From assembly GCA_964509645.1 (NCBI GenBank), contig CAZDXV010000004.1:1-46680 (forward strand): a stretch of 46,680 bases of DNA, read 5' to 3'. Position numbers and translations under genes: made by a program. The notes beneath the pieces were generated by a model. The model did not search any database and was not told the DNA's origin. It saw only the letters and a list, made by a program, of their open reading frames with translations. Shown one piece after another: positions 113 to 46,680 of this stretch (position 1 is the stretch's first letter; every line of letters starts with the position of its first letter). Origin of the DNA: an uncultured Candidatus Saccharibacteria bacterium. GTDB taxonomy: Bacteria; Patescibacteriota; Minisyncoccia; Minisyncoccales; GWA2-38-27.

Positions 113-244
113 AGCAAACTGAGTACGTTAAAAACAAGGGATATTAAAAGATAAGAAAGGAGACAGAGTGAGAACAACCTGATAGACAACAGTAGAGATG
201 CTGGATGAGGTGAAACAAGAGAGAGGGGTAAGAAAGGGAGAAAG

Positions 245-919
245 ATGAAACAGGTAACGATGATTGCAATGATGTTGGCTTTTTCGAGCACTCTTTTTGG
301 TGCCGGTCCCATCCTGGATACGCCCTCAAACGTTTTCATGGGGGATAACGTGCATCTTCAGGATGTGGAGTTTGGCTGGTGGACTACCACCAACGACAAA
401 AAAGCGGAAGCGTCTATTTACCTGAACCTTGAACACCATAAGGTTCAGACTACTGGCTGGTCTTTTTACGCCAGGAATCACGATCCCAGTCAATGGTTCG
501 CTAGCTTCAATGCGAGCGGAGTGTTGCTGGATGAAGGCGAGGAACCCATTTTCTTTTCGAAAAACCAGGAAAGCTGGATCGAAAGGGGGCCTCTATTTCT
601 TACTACCAGCAACGCTGTTCACAGAACAACTTTCGGCGAGCCGGGGGATTTTCATGATTACCAAACCATTCGAGGACGATTGTCTCTGGAGCCGGCAGCG
701 ATCGATTCCGCCCAGTTCGATTATCGCGAGTACAAGGATTCTTTCGGCCAGCCGGAAACGAGGTGGCACGGTAATTTTCACATCGAAGGGAGGTTCCTTG
801 CCGACAGCCACAAAGAAGCCCAGGCTTTGGGGTCTCAGTTTGTTACCCCCGAGCCGGCTACCCTCTGCCTTCTGGGTCTGGGTGTTGCCGGAGTGATTCT
901 TCGGCGGCGCAAGACCTGA
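245..919 (+). CDS. PEP-CTERM sorting domain-containing exported protein
   Basis: N-terminal signal peptide; C-terminus TPEPATLCLLGLGVAGVILRRRKT (PEP, TM helix, basic tail); visibly GC-richer than flanks. Confidence 0.85.
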   Translation: MKQVTMIAMMLAFSSTLFGAGPILDTPSNVFMGDNVHLQDVEFGWWTTTNDKKAEASIYLNLEHHKVQTTGWSFYARNHDPSQWFASFNASGVLLDEGEEPIFFSKNQESWIERGPLFLTTSNAVHRTTFGEPGDFHDYQTIRGRLSLEPAAIDSAQFDYREYKDSFGQPETRWHGNFHIEGRFLADSHKEAQALGSQFVTPEPATLCLLGLGVAGVILRRRKT

Positions 920-20503: not shown

Positions 20504-20768
20504 TACAATATTATATCATAGCGAAATAAAAAAAAGAAGGGCGCTTTTGGTTCTCCTCTGAGGAGAGTGTTGTAGGTTATTTCGTAGCGACTGAGAGTGT
20601 CCTCTTCTTTTTCTATCATCGCTATTTCTAGCTCCTTTATAAGAGGGTTTATTGTTATGTCAATAAGTTTATCTATTGATAAAATTTTATTAATTTGTTA
20701 AAATTATTTAGCACTTTCTAAGAGCAAGATAATGGTTATCTTGTCAAAAAAAGGAAAGGAGATGAATT

Positions 20769-21209
20769 GTGTTATCTCTAGGAATTTTCATGTTATCTCT
20801 AGGAATTCTTCTGATGCTAGGTGCACTTTTTCTTACGGTGACTGCTACCTCGCTGTTTATTGATCGCAGGGAAGAGGTACTTGGAATCCTAGTTCTTATT
20901 TTCGCTGTCGCGGCGGCTGCTCTATCCGGATTTAGTTTTTACAAGGCCGGAGTAGGGAAATTAGGAACCACTAGCAACATTGAAGACGGCATTATTTACA
21001 AAGTGGCCGGGAAAATTGATTTTTCTGAGGAGTCAACCGTAATTATTCTAGAAGAGTTTGATGGCGATCTCCTGTGTGTTAAGGTTTCCGAACCGTTCCC
21101 AGAAGACGCCCGTTACATTAGAAAAAAGAATGAAAAAAACGGTAAAACTATTCTCGTTTCCCCTGACAACGAAGTTATATCTGAGGAAAGGAAGCAAGGG
21201 TTCCAATAG
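20769..21209 (+). CDS. hypothetical membrane protein (2 N-terminal TM helices)
   Basis: ORF with SD-like AAGGAG upstream and terminator downstream; start may be GTG 20769 or ATG 20790. Confidence 0.7.
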   Translation: MLSLGIFMLSLGILLMLGALFLTVTATSLFIDRREEVLGILVLIFAVAAAALSGFSFYKAGVGKLGTTSNIEDGIIYKVAGKIDFSEESTVIILEEFDGDLLCVKVSEPFPEDARYIRKKNEKNGKTILVSPDNEVISEERKQGFQ

Positions 21210-32403: not shown

Positions 32404-32432
32404 TTGACAATATTTTTATACTATGATATAAT
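32404..32432 (+). promoter_or_regulatory. consensus sigma70 promoter
   Basis: TTGACA (32404-32409), 17 nt, TGaTATAAT (32427-32432). Confidence 0.85.
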
Positions 32433-32438
32433 ACTTGT

Positions 32439-32657
32439 ATCAGTTCTTTTAAGTTGGCAGCAGGGGAACAAGAACCCTCAACAGGCTATCGAAAGGAGGT
32501 GATAGCAGCCATGAGTTACCACAGCAGTCGTGAGCTGAATCCGTGAACCTCCAGCAGAGAAGGCACGGCCTTCTCATAGGCATCGCGCCAAAGGAGACAT
32601 CATGCCCTGGCCGTGAAAAAACAAAAAGCCCCTTGGGACAACACCAAGGGGCTTTAT
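32439..32657 (+). ncRNA. candidate orphan structured RNA of about 220 nt, family unknown
   Basis: perfect promoter, GC-rich hairpins, terminator at 32625-32655; the only SD-preceded ORFs are 11 and 4 codons. Confidence 0.5.
32625..32655. terminator. terminator, probably bidirectional
   Basis: aaagccccttgg-gacaaca-ccaaggggcttt between convergent units. Confidence 0.8.
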
Positions 32658-32669
32658 TATTGTGCGACA

Positions 32670-39903: not shown

Positions 39904-40727
39904 CATATTAATTCTGTATTACTACAGATATGGACTATATCTTCCAAACACTCTGATTGAGTATTTGGCTGACGTATTATAGTGATTTATAATGACTGCT
40001 CACTATCTCTCGATTATTGTTCGAGAAGTCTCTACGGGGACAATTTTATATCTCATTGAAGGAATTATGTAGGGTTCTATAATCTTTCTTAATTTACAAG
40101 TTCCAGTATTATCCAATCTTAACCTCCATCTGTTTCGATCTTTGTTTATTCTGGAAATAATACTTAATTTACTCCTCAGAATTTTTCTTAATTTTTCATT
40201 TTCAAAAAAAGAAAAATTATGAGTATTTACGATAAGAGATTTTCCATCGTTGCACCCATCATCCATAATCCAGACTGCGAGAGTTATTGGTGTTAACAAA
40301 TCAGAAATATTCTTAGGTAATACTTTTGTTTTTCCAGAATAAAACATTTTATACATTTCTTTAAACTCTGTAGTTGTTCTAGTATGGAAGTACCAAGAAT
40401 AATAATCTTCATTGTTTTTAAGGTTTTTTCCACAAACTATTTTTTTAGGCGGACATAAAACTAGATTTTTAAACACTCCATACTTCCAAAAAACAAAATC
40501 CTTTTGTTTCCATCCATGGTGAATTCTTAATCGAGCGCTTTTTGTCTTTGATCGACATTCTAGTCGTCCATCTCCTAAAAGACATCCTAAAGCAACTTCT
40601 CTCTGTAGTTTTGAGATGAAAAATTGTCTTCCCACGGTATTACCCATTCTTTTATTTTAGCATATATCGTTAAAAGAATTAGGGCTCCACCGTTATTAGT
40701 CAGTTTTTACTGGGCTCATATTCACTT
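39904..40727 (-). mobile_element. group I intron at 23S position 2584 with homing endonuclease, 824 nt
   Basis: junction gctgggU|tcaaaccgt; ends in G; core motifs present. Confidence 0.9.
40003..40647 (-). CDS. LAGLIDADG homing endonuclease (double motif)
   Basis: ALGCLLGDG and LAVWIMDDG motifs; 3' end overlaps ribozyme core. Confidence 0.9.
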
Positions 40728-41905: not shown

Positions 41906-42138
41906 CATTTACTCCCTATATCGCTATAGAGTATGGACCATATCTTTTCCCGAACGGGAACCTGACGTATGGCCTCTGAGGATTCTTTTAGCTTTCCGCT
42001 AAAAGCCTTTCCTGCTGATTGACCGCTTCAATTGAACTTTTTTACTGCTTTTAAGCGAGTAGTTCAATATACCCGGTGTTTCCAGCATATAGTCAGGTTT
42101 TTTCTTGAAAAATTACTTTCAAGAGCGGCAACTTTCTT
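41906..42138 (-). mobile_element. group I intron at 23S position 1911 (helix 69), 233 nt, no ORF
   Basis: junction ggcggU|aactataac; ends in G; TCAGAGGCC and GATATGGTCC core. Confidence 0.85.
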
Positions 42139-44320
42139 ACCGCCGACGTTCACTGGGGCTTCACTCGCTTAGCTGCTGTCCGAAGACAGCTACCGGCAAG
42201 CTTAACCTTCCAGCACTGGTCAGGTCTCAGCCCCTATACATCCTCTTACGAGTTTAGCAGGGACCTGTGTTTTTGATAAACAGTCGCTAGGGGTACTTTC
42301 GCTGCGGCCCCAATAAAGGGGCAAGGTATATCCCGAAGTTACACCTGCTTTTTTGCCGAGTTCCTTCAGGAGATTTCACCCGTTCACCTTGGCACACTAA
42401 CGCCAACCCACCTGTGTCGGTTTGCGGTACGGTCTCCCTTAATGATAACTTCCAATGAACTTTTCCCGGGAAACTGCTCATTTAGATCTGTTCTGTCGAA
42501 ACAGAACATTTCGCCTGCTCTTGGAAAAACCTTAAACAGGCAACGGGAATCCAATAACCCGCCTAAACTACTAGCTTCCGTCATTCACTGGACTCATTAA
42601 AGGAGGGGCCGGAATATTAACCGGCTGTCCATCGGGTACGCCGTTCAGCTTCCCCTTAGGACCGCCTAACCCTTGGATGATTATCATTGCCAAGGAAACC
42701 TTGGGTTTTCGGTGCATGGGGCTCTCACCCATGTTGCGGTTACTCGTGCCAACATTCTCACTTCTTAAAACTCCACCAAGCCTTACAGCTCGGCTTCAGC
42801 GCTTTAAGAACGCTCCCCTACCTCTTTTATCTAAAAGATAAAAAACCTTATCTTCGGTATCAAGCTTTAGTCCCGGAAATCTTTGGCGCAAAAACCCTTA
42901 ACTAGTAAGCTGTTACGCACTTTTTAAAGGATAGCTGCTTCTAAGCTAACCTCCTAGCTATCCGAGGGATCTTACTTCCTTAGAAACACTTAGCTTGATT
43001 TAGGGACCTTAGATGAAGATCTGGGCTGTTTCCCTTTCGACCATGGAGCTTAGCCCCCACAGTCTGACTGCCTAGCTAAACTTTGCGGTATTCGGAGTTT
43101 GGTTGGAAAGACTGGGCAAAGCCCACGTAATTCCATCCAGTGCTCTACCCCCGCAAGTAAACTAAACGCTAGCCCTAAAGCTATTTCGGGGAGAACCAGC
43201 TATTCCCAAGCTCGATTAGCTTTTCACTTCTTACCACAGCTCATCCTAAAGTGTTGCACGACTTACAGGTTCGGGCCTCCCCTTGTCTTTCGACAAGGTT
43301 CACCCTGGCCATGGCAAGCTCGCTTGGCTTCGGGTCCTTAGCATCTTCTAAAGATTGCGCTATTAACACTCGGTTTCCCTTAGCCTTCGGGGCGGAACCC
43401 CTTAGACAAAAAGAAGATACTAAGACTCGTTGGCTCATTCTGCAAAAGGCACGCCGTCACTCTGTAAACAGAGCTCCGACTCCTTGTAAGCATGATGGTT
43501 TCAGGTTCTATTTCACCGGGGTCAACCCCCTACTTTTCACCTTTCCCTCACGGTACTGGTTCGCTATCGGTGATATTGAGTATTTAGCCTTGGCCGGTTA
43601 GTCCGGCCTGCTTCCCACAGGGCTTTCTTTCCCCATGGTACTTAAGTAAGACAACAAGGAGCATAAAGAAATTTTCAAATACGGGGCTTTTACCCTCTCT
43701 GGCCGCCCTTTCCAGGGTCGTTCTTTTAACCTCTTTAACATTCTCCCTCAGCAAGAATCCTTCGCCGTTCAAAAAAACAGCAAAGGATGCTCCTGACGTT
43801 ATCCCCTTGCAACCCTCACAAAAAAGTGAGTTTGGGCTTTTCCCTTTTCGCTCGCCGCTACTAAGAGAATAAACTTCGTTCTCTTTTCCTCCGCTTACTG
43901 AGATGTTTCACTTCAGCGGGTTAGCTCCAGACATTAAAGCCTGGTATCTATGCTTTATCACATAGATGGGTTTCCCCATTGGGAAATCTTCGGATCAAAG
44001 GTTGCTAGACACCTACCCGAAGCTTATCGCAGTCACGCCACGTCCTTCATCGCCTCAATATCCCAGGGCATCCACCATCTGCTTCTAAAAAATTGCTTTC
44101 TTTTGTTAAAGAAAGCTAGAAAAACTTGACTAACAATTAATAACTGTAATTCTCCATATTCATCTTAGAGGTTATGACTCTAAGAATTTTCAAAGTTCCT
44201 CATTCTGACAATCAAAAAACCGCTCTGAAGCGGTCTAAACATTCCACAAAAATAGGCTGTTGTTTAACCGCTTCTTTTGTTGGGACGAGTTTTCTCGTTA
44301 CTTATCATAACTACTTTTCA

Positions 44321-44407: not shown

Positions 44408-45088
44408 CTATTCTTTGAGTCTTTTTCTCAGGTTTTGGAGAACTTCACCAGCTAATTCTTTTCCTCCTAAACCAAAGGCCAATCCTGCAGCAATAACAAT
44501 CAAAGCTATTACTCCTGTTAAGATGGTTTGAATCAAGGTAGGTGCTACTCTTAACTGGATTAAAATAGCCAAAATGGCAAAAATCCATATTGACCATTTA
44601 ACAATAGCTCCAACTAATTGTCCATATCCTACTTTCATTCCTTCTACTCCAGCTCTCACTACCTTCTCTAAAATATCAGCTATAATTACAGCTACTACAA
44701 GAATTAAAGCAGCTACAATTACATTAGGAAGGAAAGCTAAAACGCTGGTCAAGAATGTAGCAAGTTGGACAAGACCTAGTATTTCTACAGCTGCCACCAA
44801 GAAAACGATCAACAAGACCCATTTGAATATAACGCCGATAAAGCCTGCTGGATCAACTTTAATTTCAGCTCTTTCTAAAGCTGTCTTCCAGCTTCCTTTC
44901 TCAAAAACTTGATTGAATTTCAACCTTCTGAGAATTTCGGCTACTAATTTTCCAACTCCGACTGAGATCAGCCAGCCAATCAAAAAAACAATAAGAGCCC
45001 CTATTAATCTTGGGATAAAGTTAATAAGACCTGCCCAAAGATCAATCAAAGCCTTCATCGTTATATTCCCCCATTCTGTTAAAATCAT
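44408..45088 (-). CDS. TM-helix repeat membrane protein (CmpX/MscS TM-domain-like)
   Basis: two F(I/L)P.(L/V)I.AL repeats, C-terminal GLAFGLGGKE; start moved to ATG 45088. Confidence 0.8.
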   Translation of the reverse strand: MILTEWGNITMKALIDLWAGLINFIPRLIGALIVFLIGWLISVGVGKLVAEILRRLKFNQVFEKGSWKTALERAEIKVDPAGFIGVIFKWVLLIVFLVAAVEILGLVQLATFLTSVLAFLPNVIVAALILVVAVIIADILEKVVRAGVEGMKVGYGQLVGAIVKWSIWIFAILAILIQLRVAPTLIQTILTGVIALIVIAAGLAFGLGGKELAGEVLQNLRKRLKE

Positions 45089-45259
45089 GTATATTTTATC
45101 TTCTTTAAGTTTAAACCGACCGACCTTTTTATTACCATAATATACCACAATCAAACCACCCTGTCTTGTGGAAAACTTAAAAGCTGAAACATATCCCTTA
45201 ATAAGAAAAACCACCTTTTTATTTCAAAGAAATACTATCTTTTTAAAATTTTTCCTAAT

Positions 45260-45287
45260 AAAAAAATCCGGAAAACTAATTCCGGAT
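45260..45287 (-). terminator. terminator after the tRNA pair
   Basis: atccggaa...ttccggat followed by T run on the minus strand. Confidence 0.7.
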
Positions 45288-45293
45288 AAGTTA

Positions 45294-45370
45294 TGGTGGA
45301 CCGTGCCAGATTCGAACTGGCGACCTCCTCATTGCAAATGAGGCGTTCTAGCCAACTGAACTAACGGCCC
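45294..45370 (-). tRNA. tRNA-Ala(TGC)
   Basis: cloverleaf, G3:U70, anticodon TGC, encoded CCA. Confidence 0.95.
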
Positions 45371-45447
45371 TGGTGGGCGTGCGTGGACTCGAACCACGGA
45401 CCTCAGCTTTATCAGAGCTGCGCTCTTACCGCCTGAGCTACACGCCC
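45371..45447 (-). tRNA. tRNA-Ile(GAT)
   Basis: cloverleaf, loop ctGATaa, encoded CCA. Confidence 0.95.
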
Positions 45448-45461
45448 TCAATAACATCTAA

Positions 45462-45490
45462 ATATTAGCAAAAAAACAGCTTCCGGTCAA
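45462..45490 (-). promoter_or_regulatory. promoter for the tRNA-Ile/Ala pair
   Basis: TTGACC (45490-45485), 17 nt, TGcTAATAT. Confidence 0.7.
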
Positions 45491-45516
45491 AGAAAAAGAC
45501 CACCAAAAAGTGGCCT
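45490..45516 (-). terminator. terminator downstream of 16S
   Basis: ggccac-tttttg-gtggtc followed by TTTTCTT. Confidence 0.55.
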
Positions 45517-45701
45517 CCTCAACGGGTTCAATTCCTAAAAGTTGCTCCGACTATCAAAATAATCGAAATTTTAGGTTCCTCGATTAATGCCTTATCGTTG
45601 AAAACAGAATTCTACGTTCTCAACAATAGCCGACACAAACAACTAAAAAAGTTGTTTTGTTTAATTGATCCACGAGCAGGTTCCCCTACCCGTGCCTTGT
45701 T

Positions 45702-46055
45702 CATGTTATTCCCTATATCGCTATAGAGCATGGACTATATCACCATCCTCTTTCTTAGAGTTTTTACTTTTCTCGGGTGCCAAGAACTATAAGTTCCATC
45801 ATGCAAGCAACCGAGAAGATAAGCTTTAATTACTTTCCTAGAAAGAGGAGCTCGGCGTGTAGTCTCTGAGGGGTCTATCTGATCTAATTTCAGAAAAAGA
45901 CTTCCCTGCTGATTAACTGCATTAGTAGCATTTTTACTTATGCTATCCATTAAATAATTATAACATAAGTAGCTCTAAATACTCAGTCTTTCCAGCATAT
46001 AGCCGAGTTTTTCCCTAAGATCTCTCTCAGGGGTCGCAACATGCAGATTGCATCA
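45702..46055 (-). mobile_element. group I intron at 16S position 1498, 354 nt, with decayed LAGLIDADG remnant
   Basis: junction aagtcgU|aacaagg; ends in G; TCAGAGACT and GATATAGTCC; remnant KAYLLGCLHDGT. Confidence 0.88.
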
Positions 46056-46140
46056 ACGACTTCATCCCTATTACTGACCTTACCTTCGGCCTTCTAAAGA
46101 AGGACTTCGGGTACTGTCAGCTCTCTTGATGTGACGGGCG

Positions 46141-46680
46141 ATTGTCTACTAGGAACTTAGCATTGACGTTCCCACCGTACATGCAGATTTCCCGCATACG
46201 GCGAGCTCTAATGCATTTTTTCTTTAAGTTTATGTACTTGTAATAAACCAGATTTTTCCAGATGTTTTTTCTTTTCAACCAATTCCATAATTTTACAAAA
46301 AACCTTAAAATCATTTCTTTTGCTTTCCAGCTTAAGCTTATTCTTCAGATATCTTTTTGGAAATACACATTTCCGCAAGTGAAAAATTCTTTCAATTAAT
46401 AAAGAATTCTTTTGTCTTTCGAAACAAGTTTCAGATAAAACCTAGGCTCTACAAGAGCTCTTCTTTTTCCTTTGCTTCTATCTTTAGGATTACGAACATA
46501 AGCCGTAAAACTTCCTTCTCCATCTACCAAGCCAATAATATAATCTGGTTTAATCATACATTAGAGAAGATCCTTCCCCGATAAATCAGGTACTATGATC
46601 TAGCTGACTTCTGACGTAGCGTCAATTCCATTATACTACGTCAGATCTCCCTGGGTCAATATATAGACTGTTCCCAACAT
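46141..46680 (-). mobile_element. group II intron (3' part) inserted just before 16S C1400
   Basis: domain V TCGCCGTATGCGGGAAATCTGCATGTACGGTGG (46204-46172), 3' end AT, upstream GGGAGATCT...CAGAAGTCAGC...CATAGTA...GAAGG domain II/III signature. Confidence 0.85.
46208..46557 (-). pseudogene. single-motif LAGLIDADG endonuclease pseudogene in group II intron domain IV
   Basis: MIKPDYIIGLVDGEGSF...; TAA at codon 54; frameshift/deletion before KRNDFKVFCKIMELVEKKKHL. Confidence 0.88.

Follow-up and report, generated by a model that had tools for sequence, protein, structure and literature searches.

A 16S rRNA gene without an anti-Shine-Dalgarno tail, and the Shine-Dalgarno-like motifs that remain, in an uncultured uL1-lacking bacterium

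The 3' end of the 16S rRNA gene and its locus

The stretch of DNA considered here (the window, 46,680 nucleotides (nt) at its full length) is an entire contig, C4, from the draft genome of an uncultured bacterium, designated G000 (the other G numbers denote genomes of relatives), and it carries on its minus strand a ribosomal RNA (rRNA) locus that includes the 3' end of the 16S gene. This 3' end lacks the anti-Shine-Dalgarno (anti-SD) sequence: after an intact helix 45, the gene reads GGATCA followed by AUUAAACAAAAC rather than by CCTCCTT, just as an earlier note on the window had claimed. The assembly comprises 616,202 bases in 35 contigs, has a GC content of 37%, and is rated 98% complete. 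It is very probable that this is the genuine, single 16S rRNA of a uL1-lacking bacterium of the candidate phyla radiation (CPR) type, that its tail has been lost, and that translation starts independently of Shine-Dalgarno (SD) sequences as a trait of the lineage.

Read on the minus strand, the gene runs ...GAAGTCGT, is interrupted by a group I intron (46055-45702), and then continues AACAAGG-CACGGGTAGG-GGAA-CCTGCTCGTG-GATCA-ATTAAACAAAAC. The exon upstream of the intron, CGCCCGTCAC...GAAGTCGT (46056-46140, minus strand, read directly, with an approximate 5' boundary), lies between this intron and a group II intron-like insertion and aligns to the unbroken ...AAGTCGTAACAAGG of relatives. The group I intron itself (354 nt, 45702-46055, minus strand) is inserted between GAAGUCGU and AACAAGG and is matched at 45711-46073 by the Rfam model RF00028 with 86.5 bits, the gathering score being 50; its exact ends, 46055 and 45702, follow from a contig of a related organism (sequencing run X2) that has no intron there and joins 45701 to 46056, and the intron of G014 has an identical 3' end (...GAATAACATG, followed by AACAAGG). 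The 3' exon (45654-45701, minus strand), defined by direct reading and by alignment with 10 family relatives, consists of AACAAGG, helix 45, GGAUCA, and the tail AUUAAACAAAAC, which replaces CCUCCUUA. Helix 45 (45694-45671) is a perfect 10-base-pair stem, formed by 45694-45685 with 45680-45671 and closed by a GGAA loop; GGAUCA (45671-45666) comes directly after it, and the 12-nt tail ATTAAACAAAAC (45665-45654) directly after that. This 3' end aligns with the 16S ends of 47 relatives. As the earlier note had also stated, there is no CCTCC on the 16S strand before the tRNA genes, that is, from 45665 to tRNA-Ile at 45447; the only CCTCC matches listed near the spacer, at 45324 and 45514, are on the opposite strand. 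Right after the tail comes a hairpin, ACAAAACAAC-UUUUUUA-GUUGUUUGU (45635-45660, minus strand), which is also present in G012 and G014, and the 44-nt trailer stretch that holds it has a minimum free energy of -8.1 kcal/mol.

Just before CGCCCGTCAC, the gene is interrupted again, by group II intron-like pieces together with a truncated LAGLIDADG open reading frame (ORF) remnant (46162-46640, minus strand). The intron-like pieces score 27.2 bits with RF00029 and 33.1 bits with RF01998, both under the gathering scores, and the remnant matches PF00961 (LAGLIDADG_1) at E=1e-4. The contig ends within this insertion (46162-46680, minus strand). The 5' 600 nt of the 16S gene, with the 27F, 338, and 515F primer sites, lie at the end of another contig (C23), and no contig contains the gene's central part. 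Thus, the gene is split both by introns and across two contig ends, which explains why the Rfam model for bacterial small-subunit (SSU) rRNA (RF00177) gives 0 matches in the whole genome at E<=0.001, the split fragments defeating the model; the identity of the gene as a 16S rests on direct alignment. The loop motif of helix 45, GGGGAACCTG, occurs a single time across all 35 contigs. The check for a second rrs copy that the earlier note had proposed therefore gives one helix 45, no other SSU match in the 35 contigs, and no CCUCC downstream.

Other features of the locus, all on the minus strand, are the genes for tRNA-Ile(GAU) (45447-45371), tRNA-Ala(UGC) (45370-45294), 23S rRNA (44098-40671), and 5S rRNA (39279-39171). 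The 23S gene contains a group I intron (41914-42148), a full LAGLIDADG_2 endonuclease ORF (40003-40647) follows its 3' end, ahead of the 5S gene, and a mechanosensitive-channel-like ORF is found between the tRNA genes and the 23S gene. A terminator-like hairpin with a U-run (45500-45525; an 11-pair stem, then TCTTTTTCTT) closes the 16S transcription unit, a promoter-like site (TTGACC-17-TAATAT, with TG; 45462-45490) precedes tRNA-Ile, and a second terminator-like hairpin (45287-45266) follows tRNA-Ala; 3 promoter-like sites were found in the region, while 0.4 were expected from shuffled sequences. Given these two hairpins, the promoter-like site, and the channel-like ORF, the rRNA locus (44408-45525, minus strand) appears to be transcribed as several separate units. 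Elsewhere, the models for signal recognition particle (SRP) RNA, RF00169 and RF01854, have zero matches in the whole genome at E<=10, so that the SRP RNA of G000 is either very divergent or unassembled.

Distribution of the tail and translation starts across the genome

The survey of 16S tails in the lineage covered 40 relatives from the same genus, family, or order, and any SSU match was obtained in 25 of the 41 genomes searched. In all 17 family and order relatives with a readable 3' end, CCTCC is absent from the 60 nt after GGATCA, and two more genomes of the same order, taken from a sample of the class, also lack it. A DNA search of the three genomes of the same genus (G001-G003) found no 16S 3' end. 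Loss of the anti-SD is thus a lineage trait common to the whole sampled family and order. Within the family, the tails can be lined up with CCUCCUUU without a shift, departing from it at between 1 and 7 of the 8 positions: UCUCCUUU in G014, UCUCAUAU in G021, UUUCAUUU in G012 and G023, and AUUAAACA in G000. The 7-50 nt that follow vary in both sequence and length before a conserved spacer begins. To judge from these sequences, the pattern looks like a stepwise decay after release from selection.

In the wider class, 17 of 30 sampled tails are canonical (CACCUCCUUUC) and 13 lack CCUCC. The gene for ribosomal protein uL1 shows a related distribution. A search of the 98%-complete genome of G000 with PF00687 gave 0 candidates, the control having matched all 14 named genomes, and across the class uL1 was found in 17 of 121 genomes, with no match in the other 104. 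When the two surveys are cross-tabulated, on the assumption that both drew one sample, as the listed handles indicate, the uL1-containing genomes are canonical in 8 of 8 cases, while the 22 that lack uL1 comprise 9 canonical and 13 tail-less genomes; all 13 tail-less genomes of the class sample are therefore also without uL1. The host of the window is probably a member of the Parcubacteria/Paceibacteria.

The earlier note had further held that core genes lack SD motifs, which proves true across the genome. For a genome-wide measure, ORFs were taken from a crude longest-ORF caller (598 ORFs, 89% of the genome covered), and the core motifs GGAG, GAGG, and AGGA were counted at -20 to -4 and in windows inside genes. 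In G000, 16.2% of 587 ORFs have such a motif upstream, as against 21.1% internally, and the values for the other genome without CCUCC, G152, are 10.5 and 13.6% (162 ORFs). The canonical-tail genome G050, tried as the positive control, failed in that role, its own upstream regions being no richer in SD motifs than the gene interiors (226 ORFs, 9.3% upstream and 10.2% internal); a 50-kb piece of Escherichia coli, also with a canonical tail, was substituted and with the same script gave 46.4% upstream versus 14.3% internal (56 ORFs). Mean duplex energy with the canonical tail is -2.25 kcal/mol upstream and -3.12 internally in G000, compared with -5.0 and -2.0 in E. coli. Spacing gives a similar picture: GGAGG is followed by ATG at a spacer of 4-10 in 127 of 1388 cases in G000 and at a spacer of 13-19 in 130, whereas in E. 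coli the numbers are 9 of 31 and 2. Pairing with the actual 12-nt tail of G000, a calculation that the earlier note had suggested, averages -0.67 kcal/mol upstream versus -0.59 in internal windows and so gives no pairing signal. The absence of SD enrichment in G050 suggests that within the class SD use was given up before the tail was lost.

Several further properties of G000 are in keeping with starts that do not depend on SD. Adenine makes up 58% of the bases at -3 and 45-51% over -12 to -4, and 40-nt start windows fold with -2.5 kcal/mol and contain 27% GC, as compared with -4.4 kcal/mol and 37% for internal windows. An ORF on the same strand ends no more than 25 nt from the start of 288 of the 598 ORFs, with a 4-nt overlap in 73 of these cases. 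Among same-strand neighbors there are also 15 overlaps of 1 nt and 55 gaps of 1-2 nt beside the 73 overlaps of 4 nt. In 23 of 193 operon-first genes (12%), a -10-like TANAAT stands 5-9 nt ahead of the start codon, and the spacings peak sharply at 6, with 24 of 583 genes; leaderless initiation in G000 is accordingly a minority route and not the dominant one. The genome encodes a bS1 with four S1 domains and, above the family cut-off, no Era; a bS21-like ORF of 71 amino acids (aa) scores under its family cut-off and is not preceded by an SD. In prfB (contig C1, about 105900-107011, plus strand), the +1 frameshift site CUU UGA C is kept, with CUGGAC in what is presumably the position of the expected SD-like stimulator and with a hairpin, CCAGC-AUUU-GCUGG, just upstream. 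This hairpin has counterparts in G152 (CCGCC-AAAU-GGCGG) and G014 (UCCAU-CAUUUA-AUGGA), with compensatory changes.

These observations suggest how the system may have arisen and may work. Very probably, the tail of 16S has decayed from (C/U)CUCCUUU to AUUAAAC, after SD-led initiation had already been abandoned, and the ribosomes are consequently unable to form the SD/anti-SD helix. Start sites would be found by up to three routes: through A-rich, weakly folded start regions with an A at -3, presumably aided by the four-domain bS1; through coupling of termination and reinitiation in tightly packed operons; and, for a minority of genes, on leaderless or near-leaderless mRNAs. Several points weigh against the proposal that this is a single, tail-less 16S serving SD-independent initiation. 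The draft is in 35 contigs and does not include the central part of the 16S gene, which formally leaves room for a second rrs copy outside the assembly; no RNA run was listed for 45450-46160, and the mature 3' end is accordingly placed from the DNA; the taxonomic placement draws on features such as genome size and the uL1/anti-SD pattern; and gene starts come from the crude ORF caller. Finally, there is a small set of genes with a sharply positioned and conserved SD-like motif, for which a ribosome without an anti-SD would have no need.

Three alternative explanations of the tail have to be considered. That it is an artefact of assembly or binning, such as a chimera formed at the conserved helix 45, is almost certainly wrong. 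Sequencing depth does rise sharply at 45650-45699, and the gene is close to the contig end; the rise is attributable to helix 45 being common to many organisms. Moreover, single Logan contigs from three runs and two studies bridge tRNA-Ile, the spacer, the tail, and helix 45. The contig of run X1, possibly the source sample, spans 45375-45695 with 0 differences; that of run X2, from another sample, spans 45402-45695, its 3 listed differences all falling at 45455-45484; and that of run X4, from another study, spans 45374-45701 with 23 differences, among which those listed include none in 45594-45701. The spacer 3' of the tail has homologous counterparts in 10 family relatives. Because the same tail recurs in independent contigs and the spacer aligns with family relatives, the misassembly that the earlier note had named as a possible refutation did not occur.

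It has also to be asked whether a canonical anti-SD is hidden in an unassembled second rrs, in an exon past another intron, elsewhere in 16S, or in a trans-acting RNA. This is very unlikely, even though the 16S gene is heavily interrupted by the group I intron and the group II-like pieces, its middle is unassembled, and conserved SDs of the canonical type such as AAAGGAGGTGAT do exist. On the rRNA strand, CCTCC is absent from GGATCA as far as the terminator-like hairpin or tRNA-Ile; it is likewise missing from the 60 nt after GGATCA in all 17 relatives, and the family spacer alignment reveals no conserved copy. Where a relative gave a full-length SSU match, it gave just one. A relocated anti-SD within 16S was rejected for want of a conserved position: in scans of the whole 16S of 12 relatives lacking the anti-SD, 6 were without any CCTCC and 6 had it at differing positions. 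Inspection by eye of the 119 intergenic CCTCC matches listed yielded no stand-alone candidate, and most of them resemble reverse complements of SD-like motifs in front of opposite-strand genes. An exact GGATCACCTCCTTT at position 6410 of contig C10 was considered as a second tail or decoy RNA and discarded, as it lies inside a 93-aa coding ORF on the minus strand; the loose search pattern behind this match is expected, by our own arithmetic, to give about 1 chance match. Loss of the SD-like stimulator from prfB likewise speaks against a hidden anti-SD. As for the idea that the new tail took over, with mRNAs pairing to AUUAAAC... or to the downstream U-run through a new complementary motif, it is extremely unlikely. 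Between AAAGGAG and CUUUUUU, a stretch 16-22 nt past GGAUCA, a duplex of -3.5 kcal/mol with two G-U pairs is possible, but the trailer hairpin (in the 44-nt stretch of -8.1 kcal/mol) has this U-run as its loop, and the 12-nt tail, which pairs no better upstream than in internal windows (-0.67 versus -0.59 kcal/mol), does even less well with the SD-like set, at +0.08 kcal/mol. Furthermore, tail sequence and length differ among all 11 family members, so that no common partner motif is possible. A genuine loss of the tail thus remains the preferred reading.

Genes that retain an SD-like motif

The earlier note had pointed out that SD-like strings persist before accessory ORFs, naming four sites (before positions 245, 20619, 20769, and 32511) and asking what might read them. 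As a statistical signal, the observation holds for the genome at large: AAGGAG at -13/-12 precedes 18 of 583 starts, over a background of about 0.55 per position, and GGAG at -11/-10 precedes 22 of 583, over a background of about 2. The four sites themselves fare differently. At 20769 (20756-20771, plus strand), AAGGAG is followed after 7 nt by the GTG of a 146-aa membrane-like ORF without a Pfam family; its GC content is 0.422, versus a genome mean of 0.364 for other genes, and it belongs to the SD-like set. At 245 (236-247, plus strand), GGGAG stands 4 nt before the ATG of a PEP-CTERM protein gene, which is also in the set. The site at 20619, where 13 nt separate motif and ATG and the ORF is shorter than 50 aa, does not fit and was not counted. 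The fourth, at 32511, precedes an ORF of only 11 codons within a compact unit (32404-32668, plus strand) that adjoins an integrase gene. This unit consists of a promoter (TTGACA-17-TATAAT), the 12-nt perfect canonical SD AAAGGAGGTGAT (32492-32503), the ATG at 32511, the short ORF, and a strong terminator hairpin. G001 and G002 retain both the SD and the ATG, though in front of different ORFs of 14 codons, and the peptide is not conserved. An identity as SRP RNA or another known RNA was rejected, there being no Rfam match at E<=1, and G002 lacks the hairpin in which the SD-like string of G000 is embedded; because of these two results, the unit is read as an SD, an ATG, and a short ORF.

Over the whole genome, the set comprises about 20 GC-richer, mostly unannotated genes with the consensus AAAGGAGA, 6-7 nt, and then ATG. 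The 33 genes that have AGGAG, GGAGG, or GGAGA at -14 to -5 differ from other genes in GC (0.410 versus 0.364, Mann-Whitney p=4e-7) and in GC at third codon positions (0.392 versus 0.322, p=7e-10). From 45 candidate starts, 20 clean cases were picked by hand for a Pfam scan, and 15 of them have no family at E<=1e-4; the remaining 5 encode a PilZ protein, orotidine monophosphate (OMP) decarboxylase, dihydroorotate dehydrogenase (DHODH), a B12-radical S-adenosylmethionine (SAM) enzyme, and a PurF-like amidotransferase. For comparison, 7 of 43 ORFs in the window lack a family at E<=1e-3. A reciprocal best match in G014 exists for 9 of 37 motif genes versus 265 of 602 other genes. G014 has a motif minority of its own (25 of 662 genes, GC 0.463 versus 0.393), as do G152, without CCUCC (6 of 162), and the canonical-tail G050 (9 of 226). 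Several small ORFs with strong canonical SDs were seen on contig C30 (2171 bases) and on C6 near 11333, where one example reads AAAGGAGGTGAT, 5 nt, and ATG. Such small ORFs fall below the limit of the gene caller, so the SD-like set must be larger than counted.

Conservation of the motif was scored among orthologues by a strict rule (GGAG no more than about 14 nt from the start) and a relaxed one, which also accepts AGGA or GAGG. Eleven relatives have an orthologue of the PurF-like amidotransferase, and the motif is present in 8 of them by the strict and 10 by the relaxed rule; the corresponding numbers are 9 and 10 of 10 relatives for DHODH, 2 and 3 of 3 for close orthologues of the radical SAM enzyme, and 1 and 2 of 2 for a secreted protein. 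Genomes of the same genus share the whole upstream region and are consequently not independent; without them, the motif is kept in 13 of 18 cases by the strict rule and in 17 of 18 by the relaxed one. In other genera, the motif is the only shared block of the upstream sequences, as compared by eye and not in an alignment. The orthologue-bearing relatives whose tails are known (G007, G008, G012, G014, and G016) all lack CCUCC. The sequence AAAGGAGAA would pair at -8.7 kcal/mol with the canonical tail, at -10.5 with that of G014, and at -0.1 with the 12-nt tail of G000.

Two explanations of this set compete. In the first, which has about an even chance of being correct, the motifs are unread relics of an ancestral tail (UCUCCUUU or CCUCCUUU) or have been carried along by genes moving among Parcubacteria and SD-using donors. 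Such an origin accords with the higher GC of the motif genes in both G000 and G014, with the patchy distribution seen in the reciprocal best matches (9 of 37 versus 265 of 602), and with the 15 of 20 genes that lack a Pfam family; in addition, the DHODH homologue of G065, from another family, is 59% identical, as compared with 53-63% within the family. The consensus AAAGGAGA is the exact complement of the G014 tail, and, counted among the motifs listed, GGAGA outnumbers GGAGG in G000 and G014 while GGAGG prevails in the canonical-tail G050. Moreover, the motif takes a share of about 4% of genes in canonical-tail and tail-less genomes alike. What a relic does not readily explain is the conservation across genera. 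Outside the genus, GGAG is kept in 6 of 9 orthologues of the PurF-like amidotransferase (8 of 9 by the relaxed rule) and in 6 of 7 of DHODH (7 of 7), over a background of about 4-6% of genes, and an AT-biased mutation at 37% GC would presumably erode GGAG quickly. (DnaK identity was tried as a yardstick for vertical descent of the amidotransferase and dropped, being too uniform, at 72-80% across the family.) The same conservation favors the second explanation, which can be put forward only tentatively: that AAAGGAG(A/G) at a fixed spacing is a functional element under purifying selection in about 20 genes and is read by something other than the classical anti-SD. The proposed set would include the pyrD-pyrF operon, the PurF-like amidotransferase, the B12-radical SAM enzyme, and a large number of secreted or membrane proteins without annotation. 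Since there is no CCUCC in the precursor, in 16S, or in an evident small RNA, and no CsrA, such an element would need another reader; CsrA, as a protein that could read GGA motifs, was rejected because PF02599 is not found in G000 at E<=1.

Relation to known systems

The loss of the tail is one more well-documented case of its kind, confirming that SD/anti-SD pairing has no part in the translation of a large environmental radiation. Lim and colleagues reportedly described, in 2012, loss of the anti-SD in reduced symbionts and others. What deserves pursuit is the sharply positioned SD-like motif of a few accessory genes, which is kept across a family whose examined 16S genes all lack CCUCC. If the motif is a relic, it could serve as a clock for the decay of ribosome-binding sites after loss of their reader, and this would also fit an abandonment of SD use before that of the anti-SD, as suggested by G050. 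If it is functional, start-site selection would involve a new reader of a purine-rich element and hence a new kind of SD-like recognition.

Tail loss as such is already known, having been published for the group to which this lineage belongs: in the portions of the study available, the anti-SD was detected in 48% of Parcubacteria, and its loss overlaps the group that lacks uL1 (Tsurumaki et al. 2022, RNA 28:1041, PMC9297842), a pattern that matches both G000 and the class sample. Like the Parcubacteria subgroup described there, G000 has no CCUCCU, no uL1, a small genome, and insertions in its rRNA genes, and between that description, as far as its accessible part goes, and the tail of G000 there is no essential difference. 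The class sample agrees as well, with 17 of 30 tails canonical, as compared with 48%, and with every tail-less genome lacking uL1. The accessible part of that paper does not report a gene-by-gene SD analysis or a conserved residual set of SD-like genes. In a second survey, Ca. Campbellbacteria and Ca. Wolfebacteria are listed, in the part consulted, among "SD-scarce organisms lacking CCUCC," with 2-5% SD (Estrada et al. 2024, PMC10783764). G000 resembles this class in lacking CCUCC and in its share of about 4-6%; the sections of that survey that were available tabulate the residual SD percentage and do not give position, conservation, or type of gene.

More generally, organisms without a perfect anti-SD are described, in the accessible part of another study, as usually also lacking a recognizable SD (Amin et al. 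2018, PMC6107228). The "SD-blind" ribosomes of Bacteroidia present a related case. According to the portions available of two reports (Jha et al. 2021, PMC7797042; McNutt et al. 2023, PMC9976891), these ribosomes retain an anti-SD that is sequestered and is freed in the absence of bS21. As in G000, SD sequences are scarce there, adenines are found upstream of starts, and very few genes have a strong SD. In Bacteroidia, however, there is a known reader for the rare SD of rpsU, by the same partial accounts, whereas G000 has lost the anti-SD sequence altogether and no SD precedes its bS21-like gene. Finally, the other organisms that have lost the anti-SD are, in the part of the Estrada survey consulted (PMC10783764), mostly insect endosymbionts, Mollicutes, and Flavobacteriia, whereas G000 belongs to a large environmental radiation.

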